Of a stretch of DNA of 32,000 nucleotides, positions 3,247 to 30,454 are shown in pieces. This stretch comes from Cenarchaeum sp. (GTDB lineage: Archaea > Thermoproteota > Nitrososphaeria > Nitrososphaerales > Nitrosopumilaceae). Location: the NCBI GenBank assembly GCA_963692915.1, contig OY843584.1, positions 531,134 through 563,133 of the forward strand. The letters run 5' to 3'. Each line of letters opens with the position of its first letter. Within the stretch, counting starts at the first letter, position 1. A model generated the notes under the pieces. It was given only the letters and a program-made list of their open reading frames with translations. It did not search any database and was not told the DNA's origin. Position numbers and translations under genes: made by a program.

Positions 3247-3256
3247 CGGGCAGACC

Positions 3257-4915: not shown

Positions 4916-4939
4916 GGAGCCGCATATGTGGTGTGACTG

Positions 4940-5194: not shown

Positions 5195-5665
5195 GTGATA
5201 TCTCCAGGAGACGCGCTGCCTGACTTTGAGCTCGCCGATGCCGACGGCAACACATTCTCGTCAGCCGACCTTGCGGGCAAGAAATGCGCGATCTATTTCT
5301 ATCCAAAAGACTTTACGCCAGGCTGCACGACACAGGCCGACGAGTTTACGCGTGAGCACGCAAAATTCAAAAAGGCCGGCATAGTCATAGTGGGAATAAG
5401 CCCTGATGACGAAACGTCGCACAAGAAATTCTGCGCAAAGATGGGCATACCATACACGCTCCTTGCTGACACTGGCCACAAGGTCGCCGGCATGTTTGGC
5501 GTGTGGGGCAAGAAAAAGTTCATGGGGCGCGAGTACATGGGAGTCAACAGGACAACGTTCCTTGTTGGTGCCGATGGGGTGGTTCTTGACGTCCTCCAAA
5601 AGGTAAAGCCGGCTGGTCATGCAGAGCACGTCCTGGGTCTGTTTGCCGCCAAGCGCACACGTTAG
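5195..5665 (+). CDS. bcp: Peroxiredoxin, Bcp/PrxQ type
   Basis: MISPGDALPDFELADADGNTFSSADLAGKKCAIYFYPKDFTPGCTTQADEFTRE..., peroxidatic TPGCT motif. Confidence 0.93.
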   Translation: MISPGDALPDFELADADGNTFSSADLAGKKCAIYFYPKDFTPGCTTQADEFTREHAKFKKAGIVIVGISPDDETSHKKFCAKMGIPYTLLADTGHKVAGMFGVWGKKKFMGREYMGVNRTTFLVGADGVVLDVLQKVKPAGHAEHVLGLFAAKRTR

Positions 5666-5727
5666 CGATCCACGATCGATCATGCCTGAGCGCAACAGCT
5701 CAAGTTTTATGTGCGCAAGCCGGCCTC

Positions 5728-6111
5728 TTGCGCGTGGACGACTTTGAGCGCGAGTATCCGGGGTTTGACTGGAGGAACACGCCGGCGTATCGGCATCCTG
5801 GCGGCAAGGACTGTCCTTGCCCAAAGCACGAGTACATACGGGAGCAGATGCGGCACGCCGAGATGCTCAACGCGTCTGGCGAGCGCGGCGAGCGCGTCAC
5901 GCTAAAGTTTTGCCCTGATCACCATGACGTCTACTTTAATGAGGTTATCCCGTCCATGCCATTCAAGTTTCGCATGCTCACAAAGATTGCGCTAAAGGTT
6001 GGGGCGATCAACGTCGTAAAGCTAGGGCACATGCAGTCAGACCTGTGCTTTTACTGCCGGTTTGGCTCTGGCGGCCACGGCAAAAAGAGCGAGCTCCCGC
6101 CAGTGTCCTGA
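5728..6111 (+). CDS. Conserved hypothetical protein with paired Cys/His clusters
   Basis: LRVDDFEREYPGFDWRNTPAYRHPGGKDCPCPKHEY...LKFCPDHHD...LCFYCRFGSGG; TTG start uncertain. Confidence 0.6.
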   Translation: MRVDDFEREYPGFDWRNTPAYRHPGGKDCPCPKHEYIREQMRHAEMLNASGERGERVTLKFCPDHHDVYFNEVIPSMPFKFRMLTKIALKVGAINVVKLGHMQSDLCFYCRFGSGGHGKKSELPPVS

Positions 6112-6208
6112 ACAGCCCGTCATCTGCGCTCCCTGCGCACATGCGAAACCCGTCAAGATTGAGGCGTGCGCGCGTTAGGCTTATACCGACGCGTGCGGTG
6201 GCCACGGC

Positions 6209-7663
6209 GTGGCAATGGACAGTCTGGGCGACTTTGTCGACGCACTCGAGCGCGACGGCGAGCTGCGGCGCGTTAGCACCGAGGTGAGCACCGACCTTGA
6301 GATTGCCGAGATACTGCGACGCGTGACCTATGCGCACGGCCCGGCAGTGCTCTTTGAGAACGTTGCCGGAGGCGACATTCCGGTTCTTGGCAACGCGTTT
6401 GGCTCCATGCGCCGCTTGGAGATTGGACTCGGCACGGCTGACTTTGAGGGAATTGGCTCGCGCATTGCGGATCTTGCGCGCATGGAGGTGCCATCTGGCA
6501 TGCTCGGCAAGATCAAAAAGCTTCCAGAGCTCTCGCGCATGGGAGACGCGTTTCCAAAGGAGGTAAAGTCAGGCCCTGTCACCGAGATCGCCGGCGAGGG
6601 CTCATTGGCAGGCCTGCCGATCCTAAAGACGTGGCCCCACGATGCGGGACACTTTGTCACGTTTGGCCTCGTCGCGACAAAGCACCCTGACACGGGCACG
6701 TACAATCTTGGAGTCTATAGGATGCAGGTAGTCGATGACACGCACGCAATAATGCACTGGCAGCGCCACAAGCGCGGCGCACAGCACCACGAGGAGGCCG
6801 TCTCGCGCGGCCAGAGAACAGAGGCCGCAGTGATCATCGGCGCGGATCCCGCGACGGTGTTCTCTGCAGTGGCCCCTGTTCCTGAAGGCCTTGACAAGTA
6901 CCTCTTTGCCGGAATTGTCCGCAAGTCCGGAATTCGAACCGTTCGCTGCAGGACAGTCGACATTAACGTGCCGGCTACTGCCGAGATCGTCCTGGAGGGA
7001 TATGTCGACTCTGCTGACATGCGCGATGAGGGTCCCTTTGGCGACCACACGGGCTATTATACGCCAGTTGGCCGCTATCCGACATTCACAATCACCGGAA
7101 TGATGCGCCGCAAGCGGCCACTCTACCTTACGACCGTTGTGGGCAAGCCTGTCCTCGAGGACGCGTACATTGGCAAGGCCATAGAGCGCTCATTCCTGCC
7201 GCTCCTGCGCATGATGCAGCCCGAGATAGTCGACTTTGCGATGCCACCGGCCGGATGGTTTCACGGACTCGCCGTCGCCTCGATCAAAAAGCGCTACCCC
7301 GGCCAGGCCAAAAAGGTGATGATGGGACTCTGGGGCATGGGCCAGCTCTCTCTCACAAAGACCATAGTCGTCGTAGATGATGACATTGACGTCCATGACG
7401 TCAATGACGTCATGTGGGCAGTCACAACGCGCGCAGACCCAGCGCGTGACACGCTCATAGTGGACAATGCGCCAACTGACACGTTGGATCCCGCCTCTCC
7501 GCGCCCAAACCACGGCTCAAAGATGGGCATTGACGCGACGACAAAGACTCGCGAGGAGGGGCACATGCGTGAGGAGCAGGTTCAAGTTGCCGTCGACGAG
7601 CAGACGCGCTCGCTTGTCGAGTCTAGATGGGCAGCCTATGGGCTCGGCACGACTGGCGCGTAA
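6209..7663 (+). CDS. UbiD-family decarboxylase
   Basis: MDSLGDFVDALERDGELRRVSTEVSTDLEIAEILRR...GPFGDHTGYYTP...PVLEDAYIGKAIERSFLPLLRMMQPEIVDFAMPPAGWFHGLAVASIKKRYPGQAKKVMMGLWG, characteristic UbiD sequence. Confidence 0.93.
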   Translation: MAMDSLGDFVDALERDGELRRVSTEVSTDLEIAEILRRVTYAHGPAVLFENVAGGDIPVLGNAFGSMRRLEIGLGTADFEGIGSRIADLARMEVPSGMLGKIKKLPELSRMGDAFPKEVKSGPVTEIAGEGSLAGLPILKTWPHDAGHFVTFGLVATKHPDTGTYNLGVYRMQVVDDTHAIMHWQRHKRGAQHHEEAVSRGQRTEAAVIIGADPATVFSAVAPVPEGLDKYLFAGIVRKSGIRTVRCRTVDINVPATAEIVLEGYVDSADMRDEGPFGDHTGYYTPVGRYPTFTITGMMRRKRPLYLTTVVGKPVLEDAYIGKAIERSFLPLLRMMQPEIVDFAMPPAGWFHGLAVASIKKRYPGQAKKVMMGLWGMGQLSLTKTIVVVDDDIDVHDVNDVMWAVTTRADPARDTLIVDNAPTDTLDPASPRPNHGSKMGIDATTKTREEGHMREEQVQVAVDEQTRSLVESRWAAYGLGTTGA

Positions 7664-8754
7664 AAGTTGTCGCGCTCGACGGGCTCATAGCCTATCTGGC
7701 GCACGGATGCCTCTATTGCCTCGCCGCTGAGCTCCGTCGAGCGAGAGCCCGTGCACGAGACGACCTCCTCGCCAATGAGCGTGCCGCCAAAGTCGTCTGC
7801 GCCGTACTCTAGGGCAAGCTGCGCCATGCCGACGCCGTTTGTGAGCCATGACGACTGGAGATGCGGTATGATCGAGTCAAAGATAATCCGCGATATGGCG
7901 ATCATCTTTAGCAGGCGCGCGCCACCGGCGCCGTGTGTGACGGTTCCCTCTTCGGCAAGCTGCGTGTTGTTTGGCTCAAAGTTCCACGGTATGAACGCCA
8001 TGAACCCGCGCGTCTTCTCCTGCAGTCTCGCTATGCGCTCAATATGCTCGGCAATCTCGCCGGGCTCCTCGACGTGGCCGTACATCATGCTAGCCGAGGC
8101 CGGCATTCCGAGGTCGTGGCACTCCTCCATTATGCGAATCCACTCCGAGCTCGTTATCTTTTTTGGGCTGATTATGTCCCTCACGCGGTCAGTGAGTATC
8201 TCGGCTCCGGCTCCGGGCATGGACTGCATGCCTGAGTCCTTTAGCCTCGAGAGAACCTCTCGCGTGGATGACTTTGACACGCGCGCTATCATGTCTATCT
8301 CTGAGGCAGACAGCGCATGAACGCCAACCTTTGGGAACTCTGCGCGCATCATCGAGAAGGCCTCCTCATAGTACTCGATCGGCAGATTGGGGTTGTGACC
8401 ACCCTGTATGAGAACCTGCCTTATGCCAAATGCCTCCCACGCCGTCTTTACGCGTGCCCTGATCTGGTCTAGCGTGAGCGTGTATGCCTCATCATCGCCG
8501 GGAGGCCTGTAGAACGCGCAGAACTTGCAGTCCGTGACGCAGACGTTGGTATAGTTGAGTATGATATTGTTGACGTATGTCACCTTCTTTCCAAAGCGCC
8601 TGCGCACAAGGTGGTTTGCCACCATGCCCATCAGCTCCGACTCGTCTGACTCTAGGAGCCTAAGGCAGTCCTCGCGCGATGGCCGCGCGCCGGCGATCGC
8701 CGACTCGAGAATGTCGCCAATGTCAGAGCTGACCTGCTCCACAAGCTGCCTCAA
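7636..8754 (-). CDS. mqnC: Radical SAM protein of the MqnC/CofH group (dehypoxanthine futalosine cyclase-like)
   Basis: NYTNVCVTDCKFCAFYRPPGDDEAYTLTLDQI (CxxxCxxC), QGGHNPNLPIEYYEEAF, GAGAEILTDRVR. A TATA-like TTAAATATAG near 8780 favours a start near TTG 8754 rather than the ORF maximum at 8958. Confidence 0.88.
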   Translation of the reverse strand: MRQLVEQVSSDIGDILESAIAGARPSREDCLRLLESDESELMGMVANHLVRRRFGKKVTYVNNIILNYTNVCVTDCKFCAFYRPPGDDEAYTLTLDQIRARVKTAWEAFGIRQVLIQGGHNPNLPIEYYEEAFSMMRAEFPKVGVHALSASEIDMIARVSKSSTREVLSRLKDSGMQSMPGAGAEILTDRVRDIISPKKITSSEWIRIMEECHDLGMPASASMMYGHVEEPGEIAEHIERIARLQEKTRGFMAFIPWNFEPNNTQLAEEGTVTHGAGGARLLKMIAISRIIFDSIIPHLQSSWLTNGVGMAQLALEYGADDFGGTLIGEEVVSCTGSRSTELSGEAIEASVRQIGYEPVERDNFYAPVVPSP

Positions 8755-8939
8755 TGACGCGATTGGGGCATCGCCTCTATATTTAATCTTGGGAGGCTGC
8801 ACGTGGACTGCTGGCGCACGGTCTGGCGATCGGCGGCCTGCGAGCCTGCAGGCGGTTCCAGATGGTACGTTCAGGGCATGCGGCAACGGCCGGCATTGCG
8901 CAGCAGACGGGCAATGGGGTAAGATTTGGCAGGCGCGAT

Positions 8940-10160
8940 GGTCTCGTTTGCGGCCCACGGCCCCACACCTGCTTTATTACCCGATGGCGCCATCGCCGTG
9001 CGGTGATCGCAGACTCGCGTCTCGTGAGGGAGGCGCTTGCCAGGGAGTGGAACGAGCGCGTTGCTGCGTCATCACCACAGTGGCGCGACGGGGTGGACGG
9101 CTCGAGCCCGCCGTCAGTCTTTGTGGGTTCGCACATGTACCCGAGCCTTGGTGTCGGGCCACTTGTTCCCGCCGCACACGGTGACACGAGCATCTATGAC
9201 TCACCGGAGCGCTGGGGCGACATGTCACTTGAGGACATTGTGTCACTCCGGCTTCGACTTGTGCGCGGTGTGCGCAGGGTTCGCGCAGAGGAGACTGACA
9301 GCAGGTATGTGCGATCACTCCAAGAGGTGGCCATGGCATCGCGGCCGACTGATGCCGAGCTGAGCTTTGAGCGCCCTGCGGCCACGCAGGGCGTGCCTGA
9401 CGGGCATGCAGCGCCGTTTGGGCCAGTTGGGGAGATAAGGTCAGCGTCGTTTGCCGGCGCGCCTGTGTTTCGGACACTAGAGCGCGCGCACGAGGACACG
9501 GACATGGGGGCCGCCACGGCGATCCTTGAGCTCTACCGCGCAGGAGTGGACATTACCAGAATACAGAGGTGCCTCAGCATTGGGATGTTTGGGAAACGCC
9601 GACGGCTTGTCCCGACGCGATGGGGCATAACCGCAGTTGACTCTGTGATATCGTCCTCGCTGTCGCGCGAGGCCATGGAGATGCCCGAGCTCGACTCGTG
9701 GCGCGTGTTTGCCTCAGAAAGGCTTGGAAACATGTATGCGGTGATCCTCTATCCGCACGCATGGAGGTACGAGATGGTCGAGGCGTGGCCGAGGGAGGAT
9801 GGCACGATGGCCTTTGGGTCAGACTCTGAGGGCCATGCGGGAATTGACCACGCTCCGGCCATCGCCGGCGCGTACCACGCCGCGCGGCTCGCCGTCTGCG
9901 AGCACCTCGTGCGCATCGGCGCACACGCCGGCGCGCTCGTCCTGCGCGAGATACGGCCAGAGTACTCTGTGCCAGTTGGCGTGTGGCAGGTTCGCGAGGG
10001 CGTGCGCGAGGCGATGCGCTCCACGCACACAGTCGTGGACGGGATAGACGAGGCGATTAAGCTGGCCTCGTCCAGGACCAGCGTGAGTGCCGCCGAGTGG
10101 CTCTCGCACGGGACTACGGCACGCGAGCTGCATCAGAGGACGATTGCCGAGTTCATGTGA
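8940..10160 (+). CDS. NreA-like archaeal DNA repair protein (DUF650/DUF651 type)
   Basis: GVDGSSPPSVFVGSHMYPSLGVGPLVPAAHGDTSIYDSPERWG...; C-terminal LHQRTIAEFM. Open frame extends to 8862; true N-terminus unclear. Confidence 0.82.
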   Translation, partial: GLVCGPRPHTCFITRWRHRRAVIADSRLVREALAREWNERVAASSPQWRDGVDGSSPPSVFVGSHMYPSLGVGPLVPAAHGDTSIYDSPERWGDMSLEDIVSLRLRLVRGVRRVRAEETDSRYVRSLQEVAMASRPTDAELSFERPAATQGVPDGHAAPFGPVGEIRSASFAGAPVFRTLERAHEDTDMGAATAILELYRAGVDITRIQRCLSIGMFGKRRRLVPTRWGITAVDSVISSSLSREAMEMPELDSWRVFASERLGNMYAVILYPHAWRYEMVEAWPREDGTMAFGSDSEGHAGIDHAPAIAGAYHAARLAVCEHLVRIGAHAGALVLREIRPEYSVPVGVWQVREGVREAMRSTHTVVDGIDEAIKLASSRTSVSAAEWLSHGTTARELHQRTIAEFM

Positions 10161-10193
10161 GGCGCATCTCTGCGCCCACAGAACTGTTTATTT

Positions 10194-11144
10194 GTGCGCA
10201 TATGGGGTTGTGTGGGCATGGTGAATGCGATGATGCTCGTGGGCATGGCGCTAGTCGCCGCACCCGTGGCATTTGCGTTTGTGGCGTATCCGGACACGTT
10301 TGAGCTTGGCTGGAACCAGGGACGCGGCGGTGCGCTCTTTGCAGTGGCCTTTGCCGTGGCCGAGCTTGCAATGCTGCGAGTCGCGATCAGCACGCACCGC
10401 ATTGCCGCATGCGTGCCCATTGCCGCCGGCGCCATCGCGTATATAGCGGCAGCCGAGTCTGGCCTGCGCGACACGCTGGCCTCGACATCGATGGCCGCCG
10501 GAGTCGAGCTGTCTGCGTCATGGGCATGGATGTGGGACATTGCGATAATCACGGCGTTTATCGTGGCCACGCTCCATGTCCTTCTCGGGCTCAGGTGGCT
10601 GCGCCTCACGCCGGCCGGCCCCATCTTTCTTGGCGGTAGCGCGCTCATCCTGGGCCTTGATGCGTACTTTCCATACAACAAGCTCGGCGCGCTCCAGTAC
10701 GTGGTTCCGTACATGGTCGAGCTAAACGTGTGGCTCGTCGGGGTCTTTGATCTTGGCGTGGCCAACGCGCGCGACAACATGATGTTCCTGAGCGGCGACC
10801 ACGGGCACTTTGCGCTCCAGGTCTTTTGGCCGTCAGCCGGCGTTCACAGCATAATCATCTATTCGCTTGTGATGATGGCGTTTCTCCTAAAGATGCGCGT
10901 GCCGGCGCACCGCAAGGCCATATGGTTTGCCATCGGCATCGTCGGGACGATCACGGTAAACGTCATTAGGATATTCCTCCTGTCGTGGTATGCGCTAAAG
11001 GTCACGACTGACGCCGAGCGCTGGGAGGAGTTCCATTCAGTCGCCGGCGAGATCATGTTCTTGCCCTGGCTCTTTGCGTTCATCGTGCTCGTCATGGCAG
11101 TCGAGACGCGCCGCGCGCGCAGGATGGAGCAGGCTCAGGAATAG
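10194..11144 (+). CDS. Exosortase/archaeosortase-family multipass membrane protein (thaumarchaeosortase-like)
   Basis: Multiple hydrophobic helices; FWPSAGVHSIIIYSLVMMAFLL (usual A-C-S-G-x-x-S region), NVIRIFLLSWYA (conserved Arg), EEFHSVAGEIMF (conserved His). Confidence 0.75.
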   Translation: MRIWGCVGMVNAMMLVGMALVAAPVAFAFVAYPDTFELGWNQGRGGALFAVAFAVAELAMLRVAISTHRIAACVPIAAGAIAYIAAAESGLRDTLASTSMAAGVELSASWAWMWDIAIITAFIVATLHVLLGLRWLRLTPAGPIFLGGSALILGLDAYFPYNKLGALQYVVPYMVELNVWLVGVFDLGVANARDNMMFLSGDHGHFALQVFWPSAGVHSIIIYSLVMMAFLLKMRVPAHRKAIWFAIGIVGTITVNVIRIFLLSWYALKVTTDAERWEEFHSVAGEIMFLPWLFAFIVLVMAVETRRARRMEQAQE

Positions 11145-19786: not shown

Positions 19787-20112
19787 GCGTGCCAGGAGTA
19801 ACCCTCCTTCTGTTCTGGCGACATTTGGCTATGCGGCCTACCCGAGCCTGCTGCAGGGTGCTGGGGCTCTGTCTGGCCTTGCTCCGCGCGGGACAGCCGT
19901 TCCATTCCGGCTCCGGAAACCTCAGGCACAGCCGTCACGGTGCGCCGGGCCGGATTCGTTTCTGTTCTGTTGCCGGCCATCTCTGGCCACCCATCTCCGG
20001 GTCGCGCTCCCTGCGTGGAGGGAGGAGTTTCCTCTGCGTTAGCAGCGTGTCGCTCTCTGGCTCGCACGCCCAAGGCCTGCACGAGGGGGCGTATATCGCT
20101 ATCTCTGCACGC
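19787..20112 (-). ncRNA. rnpB: RNase P RNA
   Basis: Reverse strand carries GAGGAAACTCCTCC (CR-I-like), GGCAACAGAACAGAAACGAATCCGGCC, CGGAGCAAGGCCAGACAG (CR-IV), CGGGTAGGCCGCATAGCCAAATGTCGCC-AGAACAGAAGGAGGGTTAC (CR-V). P1 ends pair (GCGTGC/GCACGC). P4 AAC[U]CCUCC / GGAGGGUU keeps the bulged U. Confidence 0.87.
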
Positions 20113-20135
20113 TAGAGCGTATTCTGTACTTTCAA

Positions 20136-20309
20136 ATACTTAACAGTTGAGGGACGATGTACGATCAAATACTTAACAGTTGAGGGACGATGTACGATCA
20201 AATACTTAACAGTTGAGGGACGATGTACGATCAAATACTTAACAGTTGAGGGACGATGTACGATCAAATACTTAACAGTTGAGGGACGATGTACGATCAA
20301 ATACTTAAC
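20136..20309. repeat. 33-bp perfect direct tandem repeat, 5 full copies plus 9 nt
   Basis: Unit ATACTTAACAGTTGAGGGACGATGTACGATCAA starting at 20136, 20169, 20202, 20235, 20268. Confidence 0.98.
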
Positions 20310-20385: not shown

Positions 20386-21912
20386 ATGACTGACATGAGC
20401 GCCGGACCCTGGACACCACAGTTGCTGCGAGACGTGAATCCGTGGTGGGAGCTGCCAGACGTGATACGGCAGGATCGTGAGGTTAGGGCATGGCGTGATT
20501 CAGGTGAGCGCTATCGGCCTGCGCTCATGGGCGAGATGACGCTTGACTTTGAGTCTGATATGCAGGTGATCTACACGGTTCGAGGATCGCGCCAGGTGGG
20601 CAAGACGACAATGGTAAAGCTGCAGATCATGGATCTCCTGGATCAGGGGGTGGAACCGCAACGTTTGCTCTACTATTCGTTTGGCCCGCGTGCAACGCTT
20701 GACGAACTGTACGATGTCCTGCTGGGATACCTGCGCCTGAGCGAACGTGTCCGCGGTGATCGTAGATGCTACATATTTCTCGATGAAATATCATATGTGC
20801 CAAAATGGCAAGAGGGACTAAAGGAGATCTCCAACATGGGACGCCTGGCAAATTGCACCATCGTGGCAACCGGCTCAAATGCCACTGACTTGACACGCGC
20901 AACTGAGACGCTTACGGGTCGTCTGGGGCTTGTTGAGGATGGAAACCACAAATCACTCCTTCCAATGCGCTTTAGGGAGTTTGTGTCAATTATGAACACC
21001 GATTTGTCTAAACTTATCACCTCTCACGGCCTCTCTGAGCATGATCGGGCGCATTCTGTGTTTATGGACATCGCCACTGGATCCAATAATGAAGTTCTGA
21101 ATCGGCTAGAGCTCCATATGACCGACCTGGATGTGCTTTTCATGCAATACATGGTGTGGGGTGGAATACCACATGTGGCAAACATGTGTCCCAATGGCAT
21201 ACCAAATCCGCTGTACAGGACATACTTGGATGGCATATTGCATGAATGGAAATTTCTTGGATACTCGATTGATTCACTACGCGGCCTTGCGCCACATCTC
21301 GTGGATAGTGCGGGAAGCACTTTTTCGTGGAACAGCATGGCAGATGCGCTCTTGTGCTCCCGTCAGGAGTCCAAAGACCGCCTATGCGCGCTGCGTGACA
21401 TGTATGTGATCTCGGTTATGGATAACTATAACGTGCATGGCAAGATTGCGCACCACCGCAAGTCCAAAAAGCTGCACTTTCGAGATCCGCTCTTTTACCA
21501 CATCTTTGCCACGTTGTCTGGCAAACGCTCCTCTCCGTTTGAGCAGAGCAAGGCATGCGTGGACGATCCCACTATTCGTGGCAAGGTGGCCGAGTGTGTG
21601 ATGGCCGATCACCTCTCTCGCTTTGCCTACTCTGCATCGGTTCGAAAAGCGCTCTTTGATCCGTCCGATTATGTTTACTATTGGAAGTCGGGGAGACACG
21701 AGGTGGACTTTGTGTATATTGGAAGCGATAACATCCCAATTCCAATTGAGGTAAAGTATCGCTCCAAGATCAACCACAAAAACTTTGACGGCATGGCAGA
21801 GTTTCTAAACGTTAGCGGCGCGGGGCGTGGAATTGTTGCCACACGACGAGAGTATGACATTCGGCGCGACTATGCGCTTGTTCCGCTGCCGATGCTGCTA
21901 ATGCTGATGTGA
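20386..21912 (+). CDS. AAA-family ATPase with C-terminal DUF4143-type domain
   Basis: TVRGSRQVGKTTMVK (Walker A), RRCYIFLDEISYV (Walker B), C-terminal KLHFRDPLFYHIFATLSG...VAECVMADHL...VYYWKSGRHEVDFVYIG...PIEVKYRSK. Confidence 0.85.
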   Translation: MTDMSAGPWTPQLLRDVNPWWELPDVIRQDREVRAWRDSGERYRPALMGEMTLDFESDMQVIYTVRGSRQVGKTTMVKLQIMDLLDQGVEPQRLLYYSFGPRATLDELYDVLLGYLRLSERVRGDRRCYIFLDEISYVPKWQEGLKEISNMGRLANCTIVATGSNATDLTRATETLTGRLGLVEDGNHKSLLPMRFREFVSIMNTDLSKLITSHGLSEHDRAHSVFMDIATGSNNEVLNRLELHMTDLDVLFMQYMVWGGIPHVANMCPNGIPNPLYRTYLDGILHEWKFLGYSIDSLRGLAPHLVDSAGSTFSWNSMADALLCSRQESKDRLCALRDMYVISVMDNYNVHGKIAHHRKSKKLHFRDPLFYHIFATLSGKRSSPFEQSKACVDDPTIRGKVAECVMADHLSRFAYSASVRKALFDPSDYVYYWKSGRHEVDFVYIGSDNIPIPIEVKYRSKINHKNFDGMAEFLNVSGAGRGIVATRREYDIRRDYALVPLPMLLMLM

Positions 21913-21946: not shown

Positions 21947-22453
21947 TCAGTTGAGTATCTTTAGGCTTCGGCACACCGCGTACAGGTTGCGCCTGAGGTT
22001 CTTGTCAAGCAGCGTCTCCATCTTTTGGCGGAGGCGAACCTTTGCGCGCTCGCGCTCGGCGCCGTCAGGCAGCGAGAGGACCTCGTTTATCAGCTCGGGG
22101 AGCGACTCACGAACCCACGCGTCGAGTATGGCATAGTCGCGCGGCGATATTGGCACAACGTCAGGCCCCTCGTCGAGGACTCCGGTGAACGGCTCGTGCT
22201 CTATGCGGTATATCAGGGCAAACACACAGTTTTCTGGCGTGGGCTCGCGGAGTATCTCCTCTGACCTCGAGCCGGCCTTTCCCTGCGCGACCTTGTTGCG
22301 CAGGCCCACGGGATCGATGAGCGCGCCGTTCACGCCTATCCTCCTGCCGTCGACTCCGGTCGCCACTCCCACAAAACACCTGACCGTCTCGCCGTCACGC
22401 ACGCGCGCAAAGACGTGCGTTCCCTCGGAGATCCCGCGCTTTTTGCCAAACAT
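21947..22453 (-). CDS. Hypothetical protein, about 168 aa
   Basis: MFGKKRGISEGTHVFARVRDGETVRCFVGVATGVDGRRIGVNGALIDPVGLRNKV...; coding-like, upstream part of the ORF looks non-genic. Confidence 0.5.
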   Translation of the reverse strand: MFGKKRGISEGTHVFARVRDGETVRCFVGVATGVDGRRIGVNGALIDPVGLRNKVAQGKAGSRSEEILREPTPENCVFALIYRIEHEPFTGVLDEGPDVVPISPRDYAILDAWVRESLPELINEVLSLPDGAERERAKVRLRQKMETLLDKNLRRNLYAVCRSLKILN

Positions 22454-22659
22454 TGCGCTAGTGCCGGCGCGTTTGTATTTAATCGCTCGCCGCACGGGGC
22501 GTTGTTTCATAACCACGCCTAGGTGCCATCCACGCAGGCCCCGCCCCGAGCGAGGCGCGTGGCTGCCGCGACCGAAACACAAATGGATCGGCTCGCGGGC
22601 AGGCAACGCGTTGGCCGGCGAAGCGGATGCAAAGTACGTTGACAGGGGAAGGATACTCG

Positions 22660-23240
22660 TCATGCCCGCCAGCACGGAGGTCGCGCGGCGCGAGCTCGCC
22701 GAGGCGAGCAGGAAAAAGCCCGGCAGACCGTTCCTCTGCCCGAAGTCGCTCGTCATCCAGCTCGCCCTGGTGCGCGCCCTGTTCGGCGTCTGCCACAGGG
22801 AGCTGGAGGAGCTCCTCGCCGAGTCCCTGCACGGCGAGTTTGGTATCGGGTTCGTCCAGATATGGCGCAGGGTGTCGGGGTCGACGTCGGGTTCTCATCG
22901 CGCGACGGCTTGTTCACGTTCAACAACTCGCTCACCAGCGACGCCGGGGAAACCGAGGTCGCGTTTGACGGCACGGCCTCAGGTAGGGAGGAGCGGCGCG
23001 TGGAAGCTGGAGAAGTGGAAGGTTCGTTTCGGCTTCGTCAGGCTCACGCTGGCAGTCCACGCCGAGGACAAGATGATCATCGCCATGACGGTGACGGGCG
23101 ACGCGACGTCGAAACTCTCGCAGTTCCCAAAGCTGCTGCGCGCGGTGGTGGACGCGCGCGCAGTTCGTCAGGACGCGTGGCAGCCATCGTCGAGGAGCTG
23201 GGCAAACAACGCGAGGTACAGCAGGCAGCATCAGAAAAAT
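22660..23240 (+). pseudogene. Decayed/truncated DDE (IS5-like) transposase
   Basis: RKKPGRPFLCPKSLVIQLALVRALFGVCHRELEELLAESLHGEFGIGFVQIWRR, then frame-shifted FNNSLTSDAGETEVAFDGTASG, then shifted back to WKLEKWKVRFGFVRLTLAVHAEDKMIIAMTVTGDATSKLSQFPKLLRAVVD. Family assignment from the R-L region and DGT/K-W pattern only. Confidence 0.6.
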
Positions 23241-23250
23241 ATCGACGATC

Positions 23251-23889
23251 ATGTCGACGCCCGAGTTTGTCGAACGCTCTAAACATCTTGAGGCGCTTGA
23301 AAAGTTAGGTGCCGAACGAACCGCACTTGATCTGGAGATAGGCGGATCATTTACAAGGATAAGCCATCCACTCTCAAAGTACGTCTATGTCACTTCACTT
23401 GACAAAGAAAAAAAAACCGTAATGGCCAGGATGCTTGCCGAGCCGGCGGTTGCCCTGCGCGAGTCCGGCCCTGACATTGTGCTTGACATACTTGTTCACG
23501 TCAGAAAGGCAGTCTCATCAGCATCCGTCTCCGTAAAGGACATATCGAAATCCGAGGAACAGATAGACGCAGTGTCTGCCGGTCTTGGGGAGTTTGTCTC
23601 GCGCATGGCGTCACTGGAGGAGCGCAAGGGCGAGATTGCCGAGCGCGTTCGCTCCTTTGACTCCTCGCAGCTTGACTCTGCGCGCGCAACGCTCGAGCGA
23701 GCCACGTCTGACATTGTGGCACTAGAGTCGCGCGAGCGCGAGATTCGGGCCGATGCCGTGGCCGCCGAGGCCGAGATTCCCTCGGCCCTCAAGGCGCTAG
23801 AGTCGCGCATGCGAGCCGTGACGTCAGTCGCGTACACCTTCGGATGCCTGACGCCTAGCAATCGGGTTTTGCAGGATGGCCAGATCTAG
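23251..23889 (+). CDS. Coiled-coil hypothetical protein, possibly a 5'-truncated remnant
   Basis: LEERKGEIAERVRSFDSSQLDSARATLERATSDIVALESREREIRADAVAAEAEIPSALKALESRMR; begins immediately after the transposase remnant. Confidence 0.5.
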   Translation: MSTPEFVERSKHLEALEKLGAERTALDLEIGGSFTRISHPLSKYVYVTSLDKEKKTVMARMLAEPAVALRESGPDIVLDILVHVRKAVSSASVSVKDISKSEEQIDAVSAGLGEFVSRMASLEERKGEIAERVRSFDSSQLDSARATLERATSDIVALESREREIRADAVAAEAEIPSALKALESRMRAVTSVAYTFGCLTPSNRVLQDGQI

Positions 23890-24111
23890 TAGTGTCACAC
23901 TTTGCCGTACGGGCGCTGCTGTGACGGCATTAGCAGGCGTCATGGCGGTAGCCGTCAACATCCGCTCTAAATATCTCATGCCGTGATCATGTTTTGTCAT
24001 TATACCCCCTAACTTTTTGTGATTTTGGGCGTTTTTCACACTTTTTCAAGGGGTATTTGATCACTGTTCAAAAACCAAATGATTTTACCTTTCTTTATAT
24101 ACTCATTTGGC

Positions 24112-24124
24112 ATTTCTTTATAAA
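24112..24124 (+). promoter_or_regulatory. TATA box for the GHKL/NTase unit
   Basis: TTCTTTATAAAGA about 25-30 nt upstream of TTG 24149. Confidence 0.45.
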
Positions 24125-24148
24125 GAGATAGTGGCCTGACTGGCACGG

Positions 24149-26002
24149 TTGACCCAGCACAAGATTGACGTAACACCGGACAAGAGCCTCATCAAGAAGC
24201 TGGGGAGTGTAGGGTACCGAACCGAGCAGGCCATAGCAGAACTGATTGACAACTCTATCGACGCCCGCCTAGACGGTACGCTAGAGACGATCAGGATAGT
24301 CTTGGACTTTGCGAATCGAACGATTTCTGTCCGTGACGACGGCGCCGGAATGGATCTGGGTGCACTCAGGAACTCGTGGGTGCTTGGAGCACACTCAAAG
24401 TCATCAAACTCGAGCCTTGGCATGTTTGGAATTGGCATGAAGAGCGCATGCTCAGCCCTGGGCAAGTCGTTTTCGGTCAGGACAACAACTGCGGGTTCCA
24501 CGGCTGAACTTTACGCAAAATATGATGAAGATGAGTGGCTTGGAAGTTCAGGAGGGTGGGATGACTTTGAGGTTACTGAAACCCCCGCTGATGCAGATAC
24601 GCACGGAACAGAAGTCGTCGTGTCAAAGATCAATGTCGCGCTTTATCGTGCACAGGCTGCACAATTTCGAAAGCGCTTTGGAACACGCTATGCCCAGCAT
24701 ATGTTGGATCAACAAATAAAGATCACTGTCAACAACAAGCCATGCAGACCAATTGAGCCAGATATTGACTATAAAACCAAAAAAAACCTTGACATTTCCC
24801 TGTCTGATGGTAATCGCATCCATGGGTGGATTGCGCTTTTACGTCAATATTCAGTCAAGGGCGATTATGGGTTTAACCTGTATCAAAACAGTAGACTAAT
24901 CAGCTCTCACGCCAAATTTGGAATTCGTTACCATCCGGCAGTATCTCGTGTGGTTGGAAATCTGCATTTGGATCATGTCCCAGTAAATGTTCTTAAAACC
25001 GGGTTTTTGCCTGACACATACGAATATGCACAATCTTTTAAAGCAATTGAGAACGATCCGACTGTCAAAAAACTCATCAATGAGTCTGAACCTCATGAAA
25101 AATTTAGTAGTGACTATGCCTCTGTTTTCAGAAATGATGTGCCACCGACAAAAATTCCACGTATTGGAGATGTGAACGCCTCTCGTTTGCTTCGCAATAT
25201 GATCTCTGTGGATGTACTTGACACTGCGTCTCCTCGTATGGCGCTGGAGGATTGTGACACTGGGGTGTACCGCATTGAAGGTAGTGGCGACGAAACAAAA
25301 GTCATTGTTAATCGACAAAGTGCCGTGTTTCGGGCATTTAAAAATCCGCTGTTTTTGTTGGGAATGTTGCGTCTTGAAGCTCAAACTCTATCCGGTCATT
25401 CTGAAGCACAGCGTCTAATCACAAAAAGAAACAAAACATGGGAACAGTTTGTGGATTCACACTCTATTAATCGTGATATCAAACGTATAGGATCCAATGA
25501 CACATTGCCCAATAATCTTGTGAAGCTGCGTAGTTCAATTATGGGAGAGTTTTCAGAGCGGTTCCAGTTTACGGCTCTATCGATCTTGTGGCCACATCTC
25601 ATTAACGCATATCGTATATTGCCCTACACAGTATATGTTGCGCGAGGTTACGGCCAACTGTTAAAACATGTTGTATCGCAACAGAGTGGTTATCACGCAA
25701 TTTTAAATCCTGACCCTGGACAGGTGCATCAAATACTGGAAGCACGAGATGGCGGGGCACTCGTGATAATACGTGAGCGATCTGATGTGCCCAAGTTAAC
25801 TGCTGCATCGTATGCCAAAGCTTGGGTTGATCTATTTGTCGAGATACGACACGAACGTGTTGGAGTTTATGAAGAAGAGCTTGAGATGCTGTGGGATCTT
25901 GAGGACCACAGCTTGCTTACTATGAACCAAGTACTTTCATATGCGAAACGCCGCAGTGTTGCACAAGAGGTGGCTAAATACACTGGGGATGACACCACGT
26001 GA
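24149..26002 (+). CDS. GHKL ATPase (Hsp90/MutL/MORC-like Bergerat fold) with about 400 aa of uncharacterised C-terminal sequence
   Basis: QAIAELIDNSIDA (N box), VRDDGAGMD (G1), LGMFGIGMKSACSALG (G2), DADTHGTEVVV (G3). Confidence 0.88.
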   Translation: MTQHKIDVTPDKSLIKKLGSVGYRTEQAIAELIDNSIDARLDGTLETIRIVLDFANRTISVRDDGAGMDLGALRNSWVLGAHSKSSNSSLGMFGIGMKSACSALGKSFSVRTTTAGSTAELYAKYDEDEWLGSSGGWDDFEVTETPADADTHGTEVVVSKINVALYRAQAAQFRKRFGTRYAQHMLDQQIKITVNNKPCRPIEPDIDYKTKKNLDISLSDGNRIHGWIALLRQYSVKGDYGFNLYQNSRLISSHAKFGIRYHPAVSRVVGNLHLDHVPVNVLKTGFLPDTYEYAQSFKAIENDPTVKKLINESEPHEKFSSDYASVFRNDVPPTKIPRIGDVNASRLLRNMISVDVLDTASPRMALEDCDTGVYRIEGSGDETKVIVNRQSAVFRAFKNPLFLLGMLRLEAQTLSGHSEAQRLITKRNKTWEQFVDSHSINRDIKRIGSNDTLPNNLVKLRSSIMGEFSERFQFTALSILWPHLINAYRILPYTVYVARGYGQLLKHVVSQQSGYHAILNPDPGQVHQILEARDGGALVIIRERSDVPKLTAASYAKAWVDLFVEIRHERVGVYEEELEMLWDLEDHSLLTMNQVLSYAKRRSVAQEVAKYTGDDTT

Positions 26003-27087
26003 TTGTTGATGGTCTAACTAGACGTGATCTCAAGTCAAGAACTACTAAATTTGGTTTTGCTGACTCGGGCTATCTTGAAAAGTTTATGATGGATTTTGAT
26101 GCCTACATTGCACTATCTAATGTGAGAAAATGTTATGTTCGTGGAGGCATGTGTGTGCCTTTTTATGTTGATTCTAAACATCGCCGTTTCAGTAAAGATC
26201 TAGATGTATATGTGACTTGTTCAGTTGACGAGATCATCGAAAAAGTTTCTGCTGCATTGTTGGATGTGGGATTTACGCGTGTTACGCCCTATAATCATCG
26301 TGGCAATCAGTCTATGATGAATAACTGGGTTCGTTTTAAGGCTTCCTATGTTCCCGTGGGCTCTTCGGATCATCCATCTGCTTCTAGTCAACAAGATTCA
26401 ATATCTGTTGATATCACATGTGGGATTGATGCTGCTCAGCTTGACACTACTCTCCTAGAACAAGAGCAAAATTTATTTGACTTTAAAATACCGCCTCCAA
26501 TTCACACACTTTCTAGAGGGGCGCTTATCGCAGACAAAATTACTTCACTGGGGTGTGGGCCTGTGGGATATCCTACGCCTGCAGGACGTTCTAAGCCTTT
26601 GGGATATTCTGAGCCTGAACCTACGCCAAAGCAGATCTATGATATTGGCATGCTGCTGCGCAAAACAACAACCGATGATCTTATTATTATGGTACAGATG
26701 TACAATTATTTAACAAATTTTAAATTAACAAACGGAAATCGCAATTTTGGACTAGCGAAAGTAATTCAAAGCGTTAAATCATATATTTCTACCATTTTAA
26801 CAAATGACACCTTACCTCGGCTGACCAGCGCACACAGCGATCATTTTTTCATTTTTTCTCACAGTATGCTTTCAAAACCCCATATTGACGAAGTTGAACA
26901 TTCAAAAAATATCATGTTGACTTTACTCTGTGCAGACTTTCTTGAACGTTCTCTTGATGCCTCTGCCTCAAATGAACAATTGGCTGAACGTATGCAAGAT
27001 ACACTCGATGCTGCATTTGAACTTGAAATACTTGAAGACCAGATATCGTATTTAAAGCGACATGTTGAGGGTATGGGCTCACCTTGA
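25999..27087 (+). CDS. AbiEii/AbiGii-type nucleotidyltransferase
   Basis: KCYVRGGMCVPFYVDSKHRRFSKDLDVYV (GG...RxSxDLD), DSISVDITCG (third carboxylate), SRGALIADKITSLG ... PTPKQIYDIGMLLRK (K and YD motifs). GTG start overlaps upstream TGA as GTGA. Confidence 0.82.
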   Translation: MIVDGLTRRDLKSRTTKFGFADSGYLEKFMMDFDAYIALSNVRKCYVRGGMCVPFYVDSKHRRFSKDLDVYVTCSVDEIIEKVSAALLDVGFTRVTPYNHRGNQSMMNNWVRFKASYVPVGSSDHPSASSQQDSISVDITCGIDAAQLDTTLLEQEQNLFDFKIPPPIHTLSRGALIADKITSLGCGPVGYPTPAGRSKPLGYSEPEPTPKQIYDIGMLLRKTTTDDLIIMVQMYNYLTNFKLTNGNRNFGLAKVIQSVKSYISTILTNDTLPRLTSAHSDHFFIFSHSMLSKPHIDEVEHSKNIMLTLLCADFLERSLDASASNEQLAERMQDTLDAAFELEILEDQISYLKRHVEGMGSP

Positions 27088-27310
27088 CAATTTTGCCACA
27101 TCGGACATCTTACCGCTGTGGTGGGCGTGTCCTGTCTCGAACATTTTCACGCATGCCGTTTCTTGCAAACGTGCGGAGTCTGGCGGCCATGTTTTCTGGA
27201 TCCTGCTAGATTGACATGGTGCCCTGCCGCCTGTCGACTCCAATACTGACGCGTGGTCATGGCACATCGCCATGAGTGCAGTTAAATCCAGCCACGTGTG
27301 CCTGCTGCGC

Positions 27311-28138
27311 ATGAACCTCGTGGCCTCTGGCAAGGTAAAGGACGTCTATGACGCCGGTGACGGCCTCTTGAGATTTCACTTTAGTGACCGTGTCTCGGCA
27401 TATGACGTAAAGTTTGTCGAGCCGATCCCAAAAAAGGGTGAAATTCTCTGCAAGTTTGCCGAGTTTTGGTTTGGCGAGCTTGGGGTGCCTAGCCACTTTG
27501 TTCGGCGTGTCTCGGACACTGACATGCTCGTTAGGCGAATGAAGATGCTGCCGATCGAGTGTGTCGCACGGGGGTATCTGTATGGCAGCCTCTATGACCG
27601 TCATCTGCGTGGCGAGTCAGGACTCCGGCTTGATGACGAACGCCACGCGGCCAGGCTGCCTGAGGCAATATTTGACCCAACCACAAAGGCCGAGCACGAC
27701 GAGCCTGTGACGCGCGACTCGGCAATCCGTATGGGCCTTGTGAGCGCCGCTCAATATGACTCCCTAGAGTCAATGACGCTAAAGATATACGGCCAGATGG
27801 CATCAGTGGCAGAGCGTGCGGGATTTGTCATGGCTGACCTAAAGCTGGAGTTTGGCATGCTTGGTGGGAAGATTGTCCTGGGCGACTCTATTGGGCCAGA
27901 CGAGTTTCGGATGTGGCCATCAGAGTCATACGAGCCCGGACGCGTGCAGGACGCATATGACAAGCAGATACTGCGCGACTGGCTGGCCGCCGGCGGTCAC
28001 AAGGACAGATTTGAGCGCGAACGCGCCGCCGGAGAGGCGCCACGGCCGCCGATGATACCGTCAGAGATTATCGGCACAATGACGGGGCGCTATGTTGACG
28101 CCTATGAGCGCATAACGGGCAGGCCGCTAGACGCATAG
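27311..28138 (+). CDS. purC: Phosphoribosylaminoimidazole-succinocarboxamide synthase
   Basis: [71 protein letters not shown]. Confidence 0.95.
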
Positions 28139-28658
28139 CCTAGCGCCATGGGCCATTGTTGGGTTCTCAGAATGCCAATCTGCCGTGATGCTTCCATGCG
28201 GGGGCTAGATTGCGTGCCTTTCTTGCCTGTATTCATGCGTGCATAGGGAGATCCTGGCAGTTCGTGACCTCATATTGGCTGTGTGAGCATGCCGACTATG
28301 CGTAAAGACTCTAATCGTACTCCCAGGCGCGCCGGCGCTGATGCCCATTGTGCCTCAACGTGCCGCCGGAGCGCCGCCACAGTGGCGATCCGGTTATTTC
28401 CAATATCCATTGTATCATTTCATAACAAATCATATTATTATGATATATATCATTAGTCTTAATTCTAATGTTAGCATTATAAGATATTTCCTATTACAAC
28501 TATATGTATCGTATAATAGGGATATTATTCAGTTTCCTATTATCAATATCATTCAAATGAATAATAGTGCTCTAATTCTAATAAGTGTAAACTAGACTCT
28601 ATGCGAGCGGTCAAAAAATGCTGATCTTTCCCACTTTTGGCCTGGTGGGACGCACGGG

Positions 28659-29186
28659 ATGCCGATGGAGACACTGGTAGACCGCCCTGTCAGCGTGACG
28701 AGGACTATAGCGTCGAGTCCTGATGAGGCAAGCGCGATAGCGGATCCCGTGAGGGCAGCCATAGTCGCGCTCCTCTATCGCCGGACGCTGACGGCCGAGC
28801 AGATATTCGAGCGTCTAGGCAGGCGTGGCAAGAAAAAGGCGCTCACGACGGTGCGCCACCACATCGACGTCCTCCGCTCCGCCGGCCTAGTGGACATTGT
28901 GAAGGTCGTAGAGTCTCGAGGAGGAGTGACAAAGCACTATGGAACCTCCACGAGGCTCCTCATGCAGAACCCCCAGGATGATTTTGACGAGCAGCACTCG
29001 GATGCCATTGCAGCTGCAACCGTTGGCCTTGCGGCCGTCATAGAGTCAGCAGGCGCGAACATTGCGCCAAAGGATGGCAAAAAACGCGTTGATCCGGCGC
29101 ACAGACACTATGTCGTCGCCGAGATACTAAACCGCGCAATGACTGCGGCCATGGAGCGTGGCTCGCGCGCACCGTCAGGGTCATAG
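28659..29186 (+). CDS. ArsR-like winged-helix transcriptional regulator
   Basis: SSPDEASAIADPVRAAIVALLYRRTLTAEQIFERL...LTTVRHHIDVLRSAGLVDIVKVVESRGGVTKHYGTS. Confidence 0.75.
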   Translation: MPMETLVDRPVSVTRTIASSPDEASAIADPVRAAIVALLYRRTLTAEQIFERLGRRGKKKALTTVRHHIDVLRSAGLVDIVKVVESRGGVTKHYGTSTRLLMQNPQDDFDEQHSDAIAAATVGLAAVIESAGANIAPKDGKKRVDPAHRHYVVAEILNRAMTAAMERGSRAPSGS

Positions 29187-29290
29187 CCTGCTGACATGGC
29201 CGGAGGCGTGCCCAGTCGGCGATTATGGGCACGGGAACCCCTCTTGCGCCTGTCTGGTGGGCGCATGTGCTGTATGGGGCGCATTTGGCA

Positions 29291-29316
29291 TATTTCTAAA
29301 CTCGAGTTTAGAAATA
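29291..29316. repeat. 26-bp perfect palindrome TATTTCTAAACTCGAGTTTAGAAATA
   Basis: Directly read; both 13-nt arms match. Confidence 0.95.
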
Positions 29317-29770
29317 CATAATTTGTGACCATGCGCGCCTCGCAGACTCGTGTATGTGCCCCATGGCCATGTTACGCACAAGAGCTAAACCCCCCTGTGG
29401 GGGGAGCCGGTTCACGAGGGAGTCCATTTTTCTGAAAATGGCCGATCTGGAGGGGGGTTGAGCACCCACGCCTAGATCGGACAGACAACGCTCAAACCAT
29501 GGGGCTAGCTGTCCTGCGGGTGCCCCGTTGTGCAATGTCATGCCTAAAAGCTAAACCCCGTGATCTTTGCCGTTCAGGTGGTGGCTCGGTCCACAGATCT
29601 TCGCGCATGGCCGGCTGACGTGTGTCAGACGCGCCAGGATGGGCATAAATGACGCATGAGCCCACCCCCCGCACCCATGCTGCGCGCCGCCGCACAATCA
29701 TGCTGGCGCTGTTGTGGCACATGTGGCCAGGCGCAGTCTCGCGCTGGGCTGCCATGTGCGATATTGTGTA

Positions 29771-30041: not shown

Positions 30042-30160
30042 GCAAACCTCCTGCGTGGAGTATTGGCGATGGTGCATATTAGATCGGCATAGTCTAACAG
30101 AGTCGACCAAATGGTTCCCTCTGGGGCATGTGGGGGCGCGCACGGAACCCTGTGTGGTGG

Positions 30161-30234
30161 CGCCGCCCGACAGACTTGAACTGTCGACCAACGGATTAAC
30201 AGTCCGTTGCTCTACCACGCTGAGCTAGGGCGGC
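30161..30234 (-). tRNA. tRNA-Asn (anticodon GTT), CCA not encoded
   Basis: GCCGCCCTAGCTCAGCGTGGTAGAGCAACGGACTGTTAATCCGTTGGTCGACAGTTCAAGTCTGTCGGGCGGCG folds to a full cloverleaf with loop CTGTTAA. Confidence 0.96.
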
Positions 30235-30305: not shown

Positions 30306-30454
30306 TGTCTGGTGCCCCATGGCCATCATGTCTGGTGCCCCATGGCCATCATGTCTGGTGCCCCATGGCCATCATGTCTGGTGCCCCATGGCCATCATGT
30401 CTGGTGCCCCATGGCCATCATGTCTGGTGCCCCATGGCCATCATGTCTGGTGCC
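30306..30454. repeat. 23-bp direct tandem repeat, 6 full copies plus partial ends
   Basis: Unit GGTGCCCCATGGCCATCATGTCT starting at 30311, 30334, 30357, 30380, 30403, 30426. Confidence 0.97.

Follow-up and report, generated by a model that had tools for sequence, protein, structure and literature searches.

The 32,000-nucleotide stretch of Cenarchaeum sp. contig OY843584.1 analyzed here (hereafter, the window) carries two overlapping genes at positions 24149-27087, which encode a MORC-like GHKL ATPase and an AbiEii-type nucleotidyltransferase (NTase). The locus is likely a two-gene cassette of the AbiE family, of the toxin-antitoxin or abortive-infection type, whose antitoxin appears to have been rebuilt with the ATPase. 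An earlier note on this DNA described the pair as lacking AbiEi. That description stands insofar as neither a separate antitoxin gene nor a winged helix is present; the ATPase protein, however, contains an AbiEi-type C-terminal domain. Judged by family profiles, the antitoxin is not missing: the last ~170 amino acids (aa) of the ATPase protein are an AbiEi/DUF6577-type antitoxin domain, and the pair is a variant of AbiE with a fused antitoxin, not a toxin that lacks one and is gated by an unrelated ATPase. The two genes are as follows.

24149-26002, plus strand: gene 1, a MORC-like GHKL ATPase with an AbiEi-type C-terminal (DUF6577-like) domain, the presumed ATP-regulated antitoxin (open reading frame, homologues, AlphaFold, Foldseek)
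25999-27087, plus strand: gene 2, an NTase of the AbiEii/MenT family (DUF1814), 362 aa, the presumed toxin (Pfam, PADLOC, AlphaFold, Foldseek)

Both open reading frames (ORFs) have the same orientation, the first with a TTG start (617 aa) and the second with a GTG start (362 aa). They share the 4 bp GTGA, in which the GTG occupies positions 25999-26001 and the TGA positions 26000-26002. The two genes and their overlap are thus present as previously described, which supports the translational coupling of the pair, and all the motifs quoted for them are found in the translations.

C-terminal domain of the ATPase protein

25496-25993, plus strand: AbiEi-C-terminal/DUF6577-like domain, aa ~450-615, predicted to neutralize the toxin (hhalign, DUF6577, PADLOC AbiEi)

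AbiE (AbiEi-AbiEii) consists of COG5340 and DUF1814 proteins and was first assigned to type IV and later reclassified as type VII. Among relatives of the window ATPase, DUF6577 weakly matches the last ~160 residues of 13 out of 30 homologues (one of them above the gathering threshold), as well as 10 out of 15 members of a second family set. Distant members of the NTase clade (P0229, P0243, P0222, and P0258) each have a stand-alone DUF6577 gene of 254-276 aa directly upstream, either abutting or overlapping, in 4 independent contexts. According to hhalign, the C-terminal region of the ATPase aligns with these stand-alone proteins with 99.5% probability (E=3e-23, 168 columns), the query row corresponding to window residues ~450-615. 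Motifs common to both groups are FTGLSTL, LLNP, IIRE, and KAWLDLY.E. The stand-alone proteins, in turn, match the PADLOC AbiEi model PDLC02235 from end to end (E=6e-18 to 5e-14), with weak AbiEi_4 winged-helix matches at their N-termini. In the same model, the C-terminal domains of the ATPases align with positions 71-236 out of 240 (E=1e-5 for one family member).

As for the winged helix, no helix-turn-helix (HTH) family matches the 617-aa protein, and the hhalign alignment covers only its C-terminal 168 columns, without the winged HTH of the stand-alone partners. Sequence-profile comparison with the PDB finds no significant relatives of either the C-terminal domain or DUF6577. It was reported that AbiEi requires its winged helix for autorepression, and that the C-terminal domain suffices to neutralize the toxin (Dy et al. 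2014, PMC3985639). Because of this sufficiency and the DUF6577/AbiEi matches, the 617-aa protein is best read as a MORC-like ATPase joined to a predicted AbiEi-type antitoxin domain and standing in the place of the winged helix.

ATPase part of the first protein

24215-24628, plus strand: Bergerat-fold ATP-binding domain, aa ~23-160, with motifs I-IV (HATPase_c_3, homologue alignment, PDB profile matches)
24707-25036, plus strand: S5-fold transducer domain, aa ~187-296 (Morc6_S5 at family level, Foldseek)
25037-25495, plus strand: middle region, aa ~297-449, consisting of helices and a three-stranded sheet (secondary structure of the model)

The GHKL identity proposed in the earlier note is confirmed both by Pfam, in which HATPase_c_3 matches aa 23-123 with E=3e-17, and by structure. 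The AlphaFold model has a predicted local distance difference test score (pLDDT) of 77, and its top Foldseek matches over the GHKL and transducer parts are MORC2/3/4, SMCHD1, and Hsp90/TRAP1. Foldseek alignments to the ATPase modules of MORC2/3/4 extend over 360-410 columns with a root-mean-square deviation of 4.5-7. A profile built from 30 homologues likewise has MORC4, MORC3, and MORC2 as its best PDB matches (E=2.5e-18 to 2e-9). The motifs ELIDNSIDA, DDGAGM, GMFGIGMKSA, and HGTEV are located at aa 31-39, 63-68, 91-100, and 152-156, respectively, and the conserved residues of the Bergerat domain are E31, N35, D63, G65, G67, G91, G94, G96, G153, and T154. Across the 30 homologues the GHKL motif residues are invariant or nearly so (at least 90%), and the S5 segment V279-N280...K283-T284 (V-N-x-x-K-T) is conserved to the same degree. 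Because of this conservation the ATPase is probably active.

Morc6_S5 is detected in 29 out of 30 family members with the best E=2e-7, the window copy being sub-threshold (E=0.035). For the middle region, neither Pfam nor the PDB gives a match. No other part varies more within the family (mean distance 0.72), yet this region is strongly conserved against the ortholog in the sister genome, Cenarchaeum sp. OY843768.1, its ratio of nonsynonymous to synonymous substitution rates (dN/dS) being 0.056. No full-length model for the gene 1 protein exists in PADLOC, NCBIfam, or Pfam.

Shorter relatives of the ATPase have only the GHKL+S5 part in common with the window protein. In Clostridia, Patescibacteria, and Gammaproteobacteria metagenome-assembled genomes (MAGs; loci L060-L070, L072-L075, and L078-L083), proteins of 416-427 aa combine GHKL and Morc6_S5 with a PEP-utilizing mobile phosphohistidine domain; the next gene overlaps and encodes a conserved 367-395-aa protein that belongs to no Pfam family. 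This two-gene module matches no PADLOC system and may be an undescribed one. The suggestion that the 367-395-aa partner is a cryptic NTase was discarded at an hhalign probability of 0.6%. In Methanosarcinales MAGs (L076 2658-5394 and L077 3371-6080), a GHKL+S5 ATPase of 458-463 aa is directly followed by a superfamily 2 (SF2) helicase, with ResIII/Helicase_C in L076. MORC/paraMORC ATPases have been described in an SF2 helicase context (Iyer, Abhiman and Aravind 2008, PMC2292703). The occurrence of GHKL+S5 with several partners therefore supports a portable regulatory or engine module.

The same portability, with a helicase in one case and with a PEP-mobile domain and a protein of no Pfam family in the other, could also suggest that the window encodes an AbiEii effector without antitoxin, held or activated directly by an Hsp90/MORC-like sensor ATPase, i.e., a sensor-effector defense pair unrelated to AbiEi. 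The strict linkage of the two genes agrees with this explanation, as does the lack of both a separate AbiEi gene and a winged-helix domain. The ATPase protein, however, ends in an AbiEi/DUF6577-type domain, and members of the same NTase clade have stand-alone AbiEi-like DUF6577 partners where the ATPase is absent. A sensor-effector pair of this kind is therefore considered quite improbable.

Nucleotidyltransferase

26185-26205, plus strand: active-site loop R63-F-S65-K66-D67-L-D69, with the catalytic Asp and the predicted phospho-acceptor Ser (NTase alignments, comparison with MenT3/AbiEii motifs)
26559-26617, plus strand: imperfect 18-bp tandem repeat, 3.3 copies, encoding a disordered insert at aa ~188-207 (Tandem Repeats Finder, pLDDT, alignment)

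The second protein was previously called an AbiEii-type NTase, and this assignment holds. Pfam AbiEii (PF08843) matches aa 44-228 above the cut-off (E=1.6e-8), and the PADLOC AbiEii model PDLC02299 matches as well. The AlphaFold model has a pLDDT of 85 and a predicted template modeling score of 0.88; its top Foldseek matches are MenT3/TglT, MenT1, and MenT4, together with an NTase of Helicobacter pylori. A sequence-profile search finds no PDB relatives, so that the link to solved structures is made by Foldseek and Pfam only. The motifs GG, RFSKDLD, SVDI, ADK, and QIYDI are located at aa 49-50, 63-69, 136-139, 178-180, and 212-216, respectively. Six residues (S65, D67, D69, K180, K211, and D215) do not vary in either NTase alignment, and R63 is invariant in one of them and nearly so in the other. 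G49 and G50 approach invariance in one alignment, and D138 is invariant only in the 14-sequence alignment, being D or E in the larger one.

For MenT3, the residues used in the comparison include R76, S78, K79, and D82 (PMC11375011). The loop of the window NTase has the same R-x-S-K-D-x-D pattern as MenT3 R76/S78/K79/D80/D82, and its spacing to D138 and K180 resembles that to MenT3 E146 and K189 (residue names from PDB mutant entries). S65 is predicted to be the equivalent of MenT3 S78 and AbiEii T65. The insert encoded by the tandem repeat sits between the ADK and PKQIYD motifs, with pLDDT <50 at aa 188-206. Within the NTase alignment it is seen only in the window sequence and its ortholog, and therefore represents a recent repeat-driven expansion of a loop adjoining the active site.

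The GHKL superfamily includes protein kinases. Together with the invariance of S65 and the silencing of AbiEii/MenT toxins by phosphorylation at the equivalent Ser/Thr, this could mean that the GHKL domain of gene 1 is itself a protein kinase (histidine kinase- or SpoIIAB-like) that phosphorylates S65 of the toxin, which would make it a true kinase-type antitoxin of type VII. The domain is, however, accompanied by an S5 transducer, typical of the clamp ATPases MutL/GyrB/MORC/Hsp90, and the proteins that it matches best in structure and sequence are MORC2/3/4, SMCHD1, and Hsp90. Moreover, in all studied cases phosphorylation is auto-catalyzed by the toxin and the antitoxin binds no nucleotide (bioRxiv 10.64898/2026.01.19.700257). 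A kinase function thus has only a slim chance of being correct.

Recurrence and evolution of the pair

The number of full-length ATPase homologues, with lengths of ~620-650 aa, is > 449. As for the NTase, a word-indexed search reports 13-15 relatives, and an exhaustive profile search reports 742 clusters at 50% identity with E<=1e-3, including 115 with E<=1e-30. Scanning one genome per species gives 79 loci. The ~47 full-length ATPase genes all belong to Nitrososphaerota MAGs (Nitrosopumilaceae, Cenarchaeum, Nitrosopumilus, one Nitrososphaera, and unclassified Thaumarchaeota), except for one Dehalococcoidia bin. At ~38 of these 47 loci an NTase of the same clade lies immediately downstream, several copies being split or interrupted, and in loci seeded with the NTase the ATPase is found just upstream in 5 out of 5 close relatives. 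The pairing noted earlier in the window alone is therefore a recurrent one. About one fifth of the ATPase genes have no intact NTase, and no NTase of the clade is seen without a partner, which is the asymmetry expected for an antitoxin and its toxin.

In the intact pairs (n=31) the antitoxin-type gene comes first and the modal gap equals -4 bp. Two or three copies of the module per genome are frequent, and some are in tandem (two pairs in L095, a pair and an orphan ATPase in L093). Neither a conserved third gene nor a separate antitoxin is found, the largest neighbor family being an IS66 transposase at 4 out of 46 loci. Transposases are also the most recurrent class of neighbors, and a few AAA_15/AAA_13/AAA_21 ATPases occur too. 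Searching PLSDB plasmids by tblastn with the NTase and with one C-terminal domain yields nothing.

Distances of the ATPase and the NTase co-vary among the 31 intact pairs (Mantel r=0.84-0.89, p<=0.0005), the mean family distances being 0.46 for the ATPase core, 0.64 for the C-terminal domain, and 0.72 for the NTase. In the sister genome OY843768.1 the module occupies the same site, adjoining purC, with 93.7% DNA identity over window positions 23141-29650. Compared with the ortholog, the ATPase has a dN/dS of 0.28 and the NTase one of 0.43, versus ~0.11 for the flanking purC and HTH genes, and the C-terminal domain of gene 1 evolves fastest (0.58), all of these values coming from a single pairwise comparison. 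These ratios indicate that both genes are under purifying selection. Paralogues inside one genome have 38-41% identity. An apparent mosaicism between the window and OY843768.1 (NTase 84%, ATPase 41%) was rejected, since the 41% protein, P0064, is a paralogue located elsewhere and the true ortholog has ~94% identity throughout.

The genome of the window (1.64 Mb) also contains a second, orphan ATPase-AbiEi fusion paralogue outside the window (P0081, L004 133-1992, 619 aa, 38% identity), with no NTase downstream on the short contig examined. Degraded NTase genes are located 3' of intact ATPase genes in L009 (7814-10529), L023 (7931-9073), and L031 (8024-8998). The one in L009 is split by a ~1.5-kb insertion with an ORF of 414-446 aa, possibly an insertion sequence element, and those in L023 and L031 are frameshifted; at all three loci the toxin gene decays and the antitoxin-type gene is intact. 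A candidate alternative downstream partner in L022 turned out to be an ordinary methyltransferase-like host gene. The long NTase homologues P0203, P0219, and P0269, considered as clues to a fusion, were set aside as well, having neither DUF6577 nor GHKL and extra domains that are unrelated. The locus L093 (ERZ19489113 contig, 197 kb) carries at 1-11143 a conflict-type cluster of an AAA_13 ATPase, a complete ATPase-NTase pair, an orphan ATPase of the same family, an N6_N4 methyltransferase, and an 846-aa HATPase_c_3 protein, and is one of the few loci that place the module in a defense-island-like setting.

Several of these properties would be expected of a selfish addiction cassette, which takes no part in virus defense and is kept because loss of the labile or regulated antitoxin kills the cell, the ATPase only tuning the stability or activity of the antitoxin. 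Thus, the module is multi-copy and tandem in genomes, has low GC content relative to the host, occupies variable sites among housekeeping genes with transposases as the commonest neighbors, and leaves decayed toxin genes and orphan antitoxin-type genes. The AbiE of Streptococcus agalactiae, which showed no protection against phages, points in the same direction. Addiction is, however, compatible with defense, as AbiE of Lactococcus lactis and relatives such as SanaTA do protect (bioRxiv 10.64898/2026.01.19.700257). In addition, the expansion in sponge-symbiont archaea fits a high pressure from viruses and mobile genetic elements, and the module is kept at one site in two species under purifying selection. 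Pure addiction is therefore regarded as unlikely.

The frequent housekeeping neighbors, among them tRNA synthetases, might instead suggest a housekeeping nucleic-acid complex that is no conflict system, e.g., a MutL-like ATPase and a Pol-beta-type NTase in repair or RNA maturation, given that GHKL+S5 ATPases work in repair and topology (PMC2292703). Such a complex is hard to reconcile with a patchy distribution in one lineage, with strongly diverged paralogues within one genome (38-41% identity), and with variable sites, low GC content, and degraded copies. Taken together with the homology to AbiEi and AbiEii, these properties leave its probability close to negligible.

Comparison with known systems

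As in AbiE, two overlapping genes form a bicistronic operon, and the antitoxin-type gene comes before the other. The presumed toxin, a DUF1814/AbiEii Pol-beta-type NTase, shares its catalytic motifs and a Ser/Thr phospho-acceptor position with that of AbiE, and the partner bears an AbiEi-type C-terminal domain, which is recognized at the family level, the window copy alone being weak (E=0.02-0.13). Unlike in AbiE, the N-terminal winged helix is absent and ~450 residues of GHKL ATPase, S5, and the unassigned middle region are found instead; the host also differs, being an archaeon (Nitrosopumilaceae). Because the gene 1 protein has no winged helix, transcriptional autoregulation has probably been lost and an ATP-dependent step gained. 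The DUF6577-AbiEii pairs (with DUF6577 proteins of 254-276 aa) share the NTase clade, the partner's C-terminal domain, the gene order, and the overlap. Their stand-alone DUF6577 proteins, however, retain an AbiEi_4-like winged helix at the N-terminus, where the window protein has the ATPase.

MenA3-MenT3 (TakA-TglT) and MenA1-MenT1 of Mycobacterium tuberculosis provide the closest solved structures to the window NTase, with an identical loop pattern. Sequence identity to MenT is, however, only 13-15%, and the architecture of the antitoxin is different. In comparison with MenT, the window NTase also has an extra conserved helical segment at the N-terminus (aa 1-42) and a longer helical C-terminus.

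As for prokaryotic MORC/paraMORC proteins, the gene 1 protein resembles them in its domain order, with GHKL and its intact ATP motifs at the N-terminus, then S5 and a family-specific C-terminal extension, as well as in a patchy, laterally mobile distribution in conflict-type contexts. MORC/paraMORC have been described with SF2 helicases, endonucleases, methylases, or TIR in operons resembling restriction-modification (RM) systems, but none with an NTase toxin or an antitoxin domain (PMC2292703). No RM-type partner is conserved beside the module in the 46 loci (Pfam scan of the 150 nearest neighbors). The best PADLOC/NCBIfam match to the ATPase domain is MzaB of the MZA anti-phage system. This match, however, covers residues 15-156 only and has 46 bits versus an NCBIfam cut-off of 850, and no other Mza genes are present in the window. 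No description of the AbiEii+GHKL/MORC pairing (PF08843+PF13589) or of DUF6577 was found in the papers searched, the coverage of which is incomplete, so that a prior description is possible.

Proposed mechanism

MenT toxins nucleotidylate the 3' ends of tRNA and block translation. If it works as MenT1/3 and AbiEii do, the gene 2 NTase would add nucleotides to tRNA 3' ends and halt translation, and we infer that it is a tRNA-directed toxin. MenA1 and MenA3 silence their toxins via induced auto-phosphorylation, at T39 of MenT1 and S78 of MenT3 (PMC11375011), and AbiEi silences AbiEii likewise, at T65 (bioRxiv 10.64898/2026.01.19.700257). From these precedents we infer that the fused AbiEi-type domain neutralizes the window NTase, in that it would bind the enzyme and keep it phosphorylated (at S65) or blocked. 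The winged-helix domain, responsible for promoter autorepression in AbiEi, would have been swapped for the MORC-like GHKL+S5 module and the linker region. This module would act as an ATP-driven dimerizing clamp and make neutralization conditional, the antitoxin domain being switched on or off the toxin when ATP is bound or hydrolyzed, or by a ligand (e.g., foreign nucleic acid). The GHKL+S5 ATPase probably gates neutralization in an ATP- or ligand-dependent manner. A specific interface would be in line with the conserved N-terminal helices of the NTase (aa 1-42) and with the rapid, correlated evolution of this enzyme and the C-terminal domain.

The earlier suggestion of an ATP-driven sensor gating an effector remains a plausible hypothesis. 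In its most direct form, the MORC-like ATPase itself would sense foreign nucleic acid or a viral protein and undergo ATP-driven dimerization, which would take the AbiEi domain off the NTase or prevent auto-phosphorylation and so free the tRNA-modifying toxin. This form is offered as a tentative and somewhat doubtful proposal.

Several results weigh against an AbiE-family cassette with a rebuilt antitoxin, or against its role in defense. Taken alone, the window protein's C-terminal domain scores weakly (E=0.13 with DUF6577, E=0.02-0.03 with PADLOC AbiEi), and its AbiEi-type assignment thus rests on family-level profiles. Sequence-profile alignment of the NTase to MenT3 or AbiEii failed to find a match, and therefore the predicted equivalence of S65 is based on motif and spacing. 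According to the Pfam scan of the nearest neighbors, the surrounding genes are mostly housekeeping ones, including tRNA synthetases, and not defense islands; the module is also not found on viral contigs of IMG/VR, which give two weak partial GHKL matches only. Because of these neighbors the defense-island context is weak. The evidence for a defense role of the module is weak as well. Finally, no protection by the AbiE of S. agalactiae was seen against 32 coliphages (bioRxiv 10.64898/2026.01.19.700257), and hence a relative of AbiE need not be a defense system.

Promoter and surroundings of the module

24094-24124, plus strand: putative promoter with two TATA-like elements (read directly from the sequence)

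The module was previously said to have its own TATA box, and two putative TATA-like elements are indeed present upstream of gene 1: TTTATATA at 24094-24101 and TTTATAAA at 24117-24124. The latter is ~25-30 nt 5' of the TTG start, a spacing that fits a leaderless archaeal mRNA for gene 1. GC content of the module forms a trough of 0.40-0.46 versus 0.55-0.60 in the flanks. Elsewhere the window contains an archaeal RNase P RNA gene (19787-20065, minus strand), a tRNA-Asn gene (30158-30234, minus strand), and a ribosomal-protein operon.

A stretch of reduced GC content (~0.50) between the RNase P RNA gene and the ATPase-NTase module includes a gene for a 508-aa AAA_14 + DUF4143 ATPase (20386-21912, plus strand), which matches the PADLOC candidate system PDC-S01 with E=6e-32. 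This gene is missing from the syntenic region of the sister genome, whose synteny starts only at window position 23141. Two tandem repeats are found near RNA genes. The near-perfect one at 20125-20309 (33 bp x 5.6 copies, 98% matches) directly adjoins the RNase P RNA gene, and the perfect one at 30306-30454 (23 bp x 6.5 copies, 100% matches) is ~70 bp from tRNA-Asn. At the latter repeat the sister genome is gapped, with blastn segments stopping at 30362 and resuming at 30432.

The region 21947-23308 has high GC content (0.65) and long overlapping ORFs on both strands, for which no Pfam match is reported even at E<=10; the transposase remnant that had been placed next to the module, which may refer to this region, is thus not supported. 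Synteny with OY843768.1 breaks at 23141, and a coiled-coil ORF at 23251-23889 (212 aa) resembles the 3' portion of a gene for 428 aa that the sister genome carries (L001 4486-5772). The region 21947-23308 may be a rearrangement scar.

Implications

How toxins of the AbiE/MenT type are released from their antitoxins is still unclear, as recent work explains silencing only. The module provides a natural experiment in this respect, since one toxin clade has a classical winged-helix AbiEi-like partner in some lineages and a MORC/Hsp90-type clamp partner in ammonia-oxidizing archaea, especially sponge symbionts. The swap of the winged helix for a clamp points to post-translational, energy-dependent control. 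If the ATPase is indeed a sensor, an "ATP-gated antitoxin" would be a mechanistic answer to how AbiE/MenT-type toxins are triggered, as well as the first case of MORC-type clamps being functionally linked to effectors that target translation. The pair also widens the repertoire of prokaryotic MORC-like ATPases from DNA systems of the RM type to a presumed translation-targeting toxin, and Pfam DUF6577 gains a likely role. For Nitrosopumilaceae, it would explain the multi-copy genes annotated as "ATP-binding protein", a large unannotated family of > 449 clusters.

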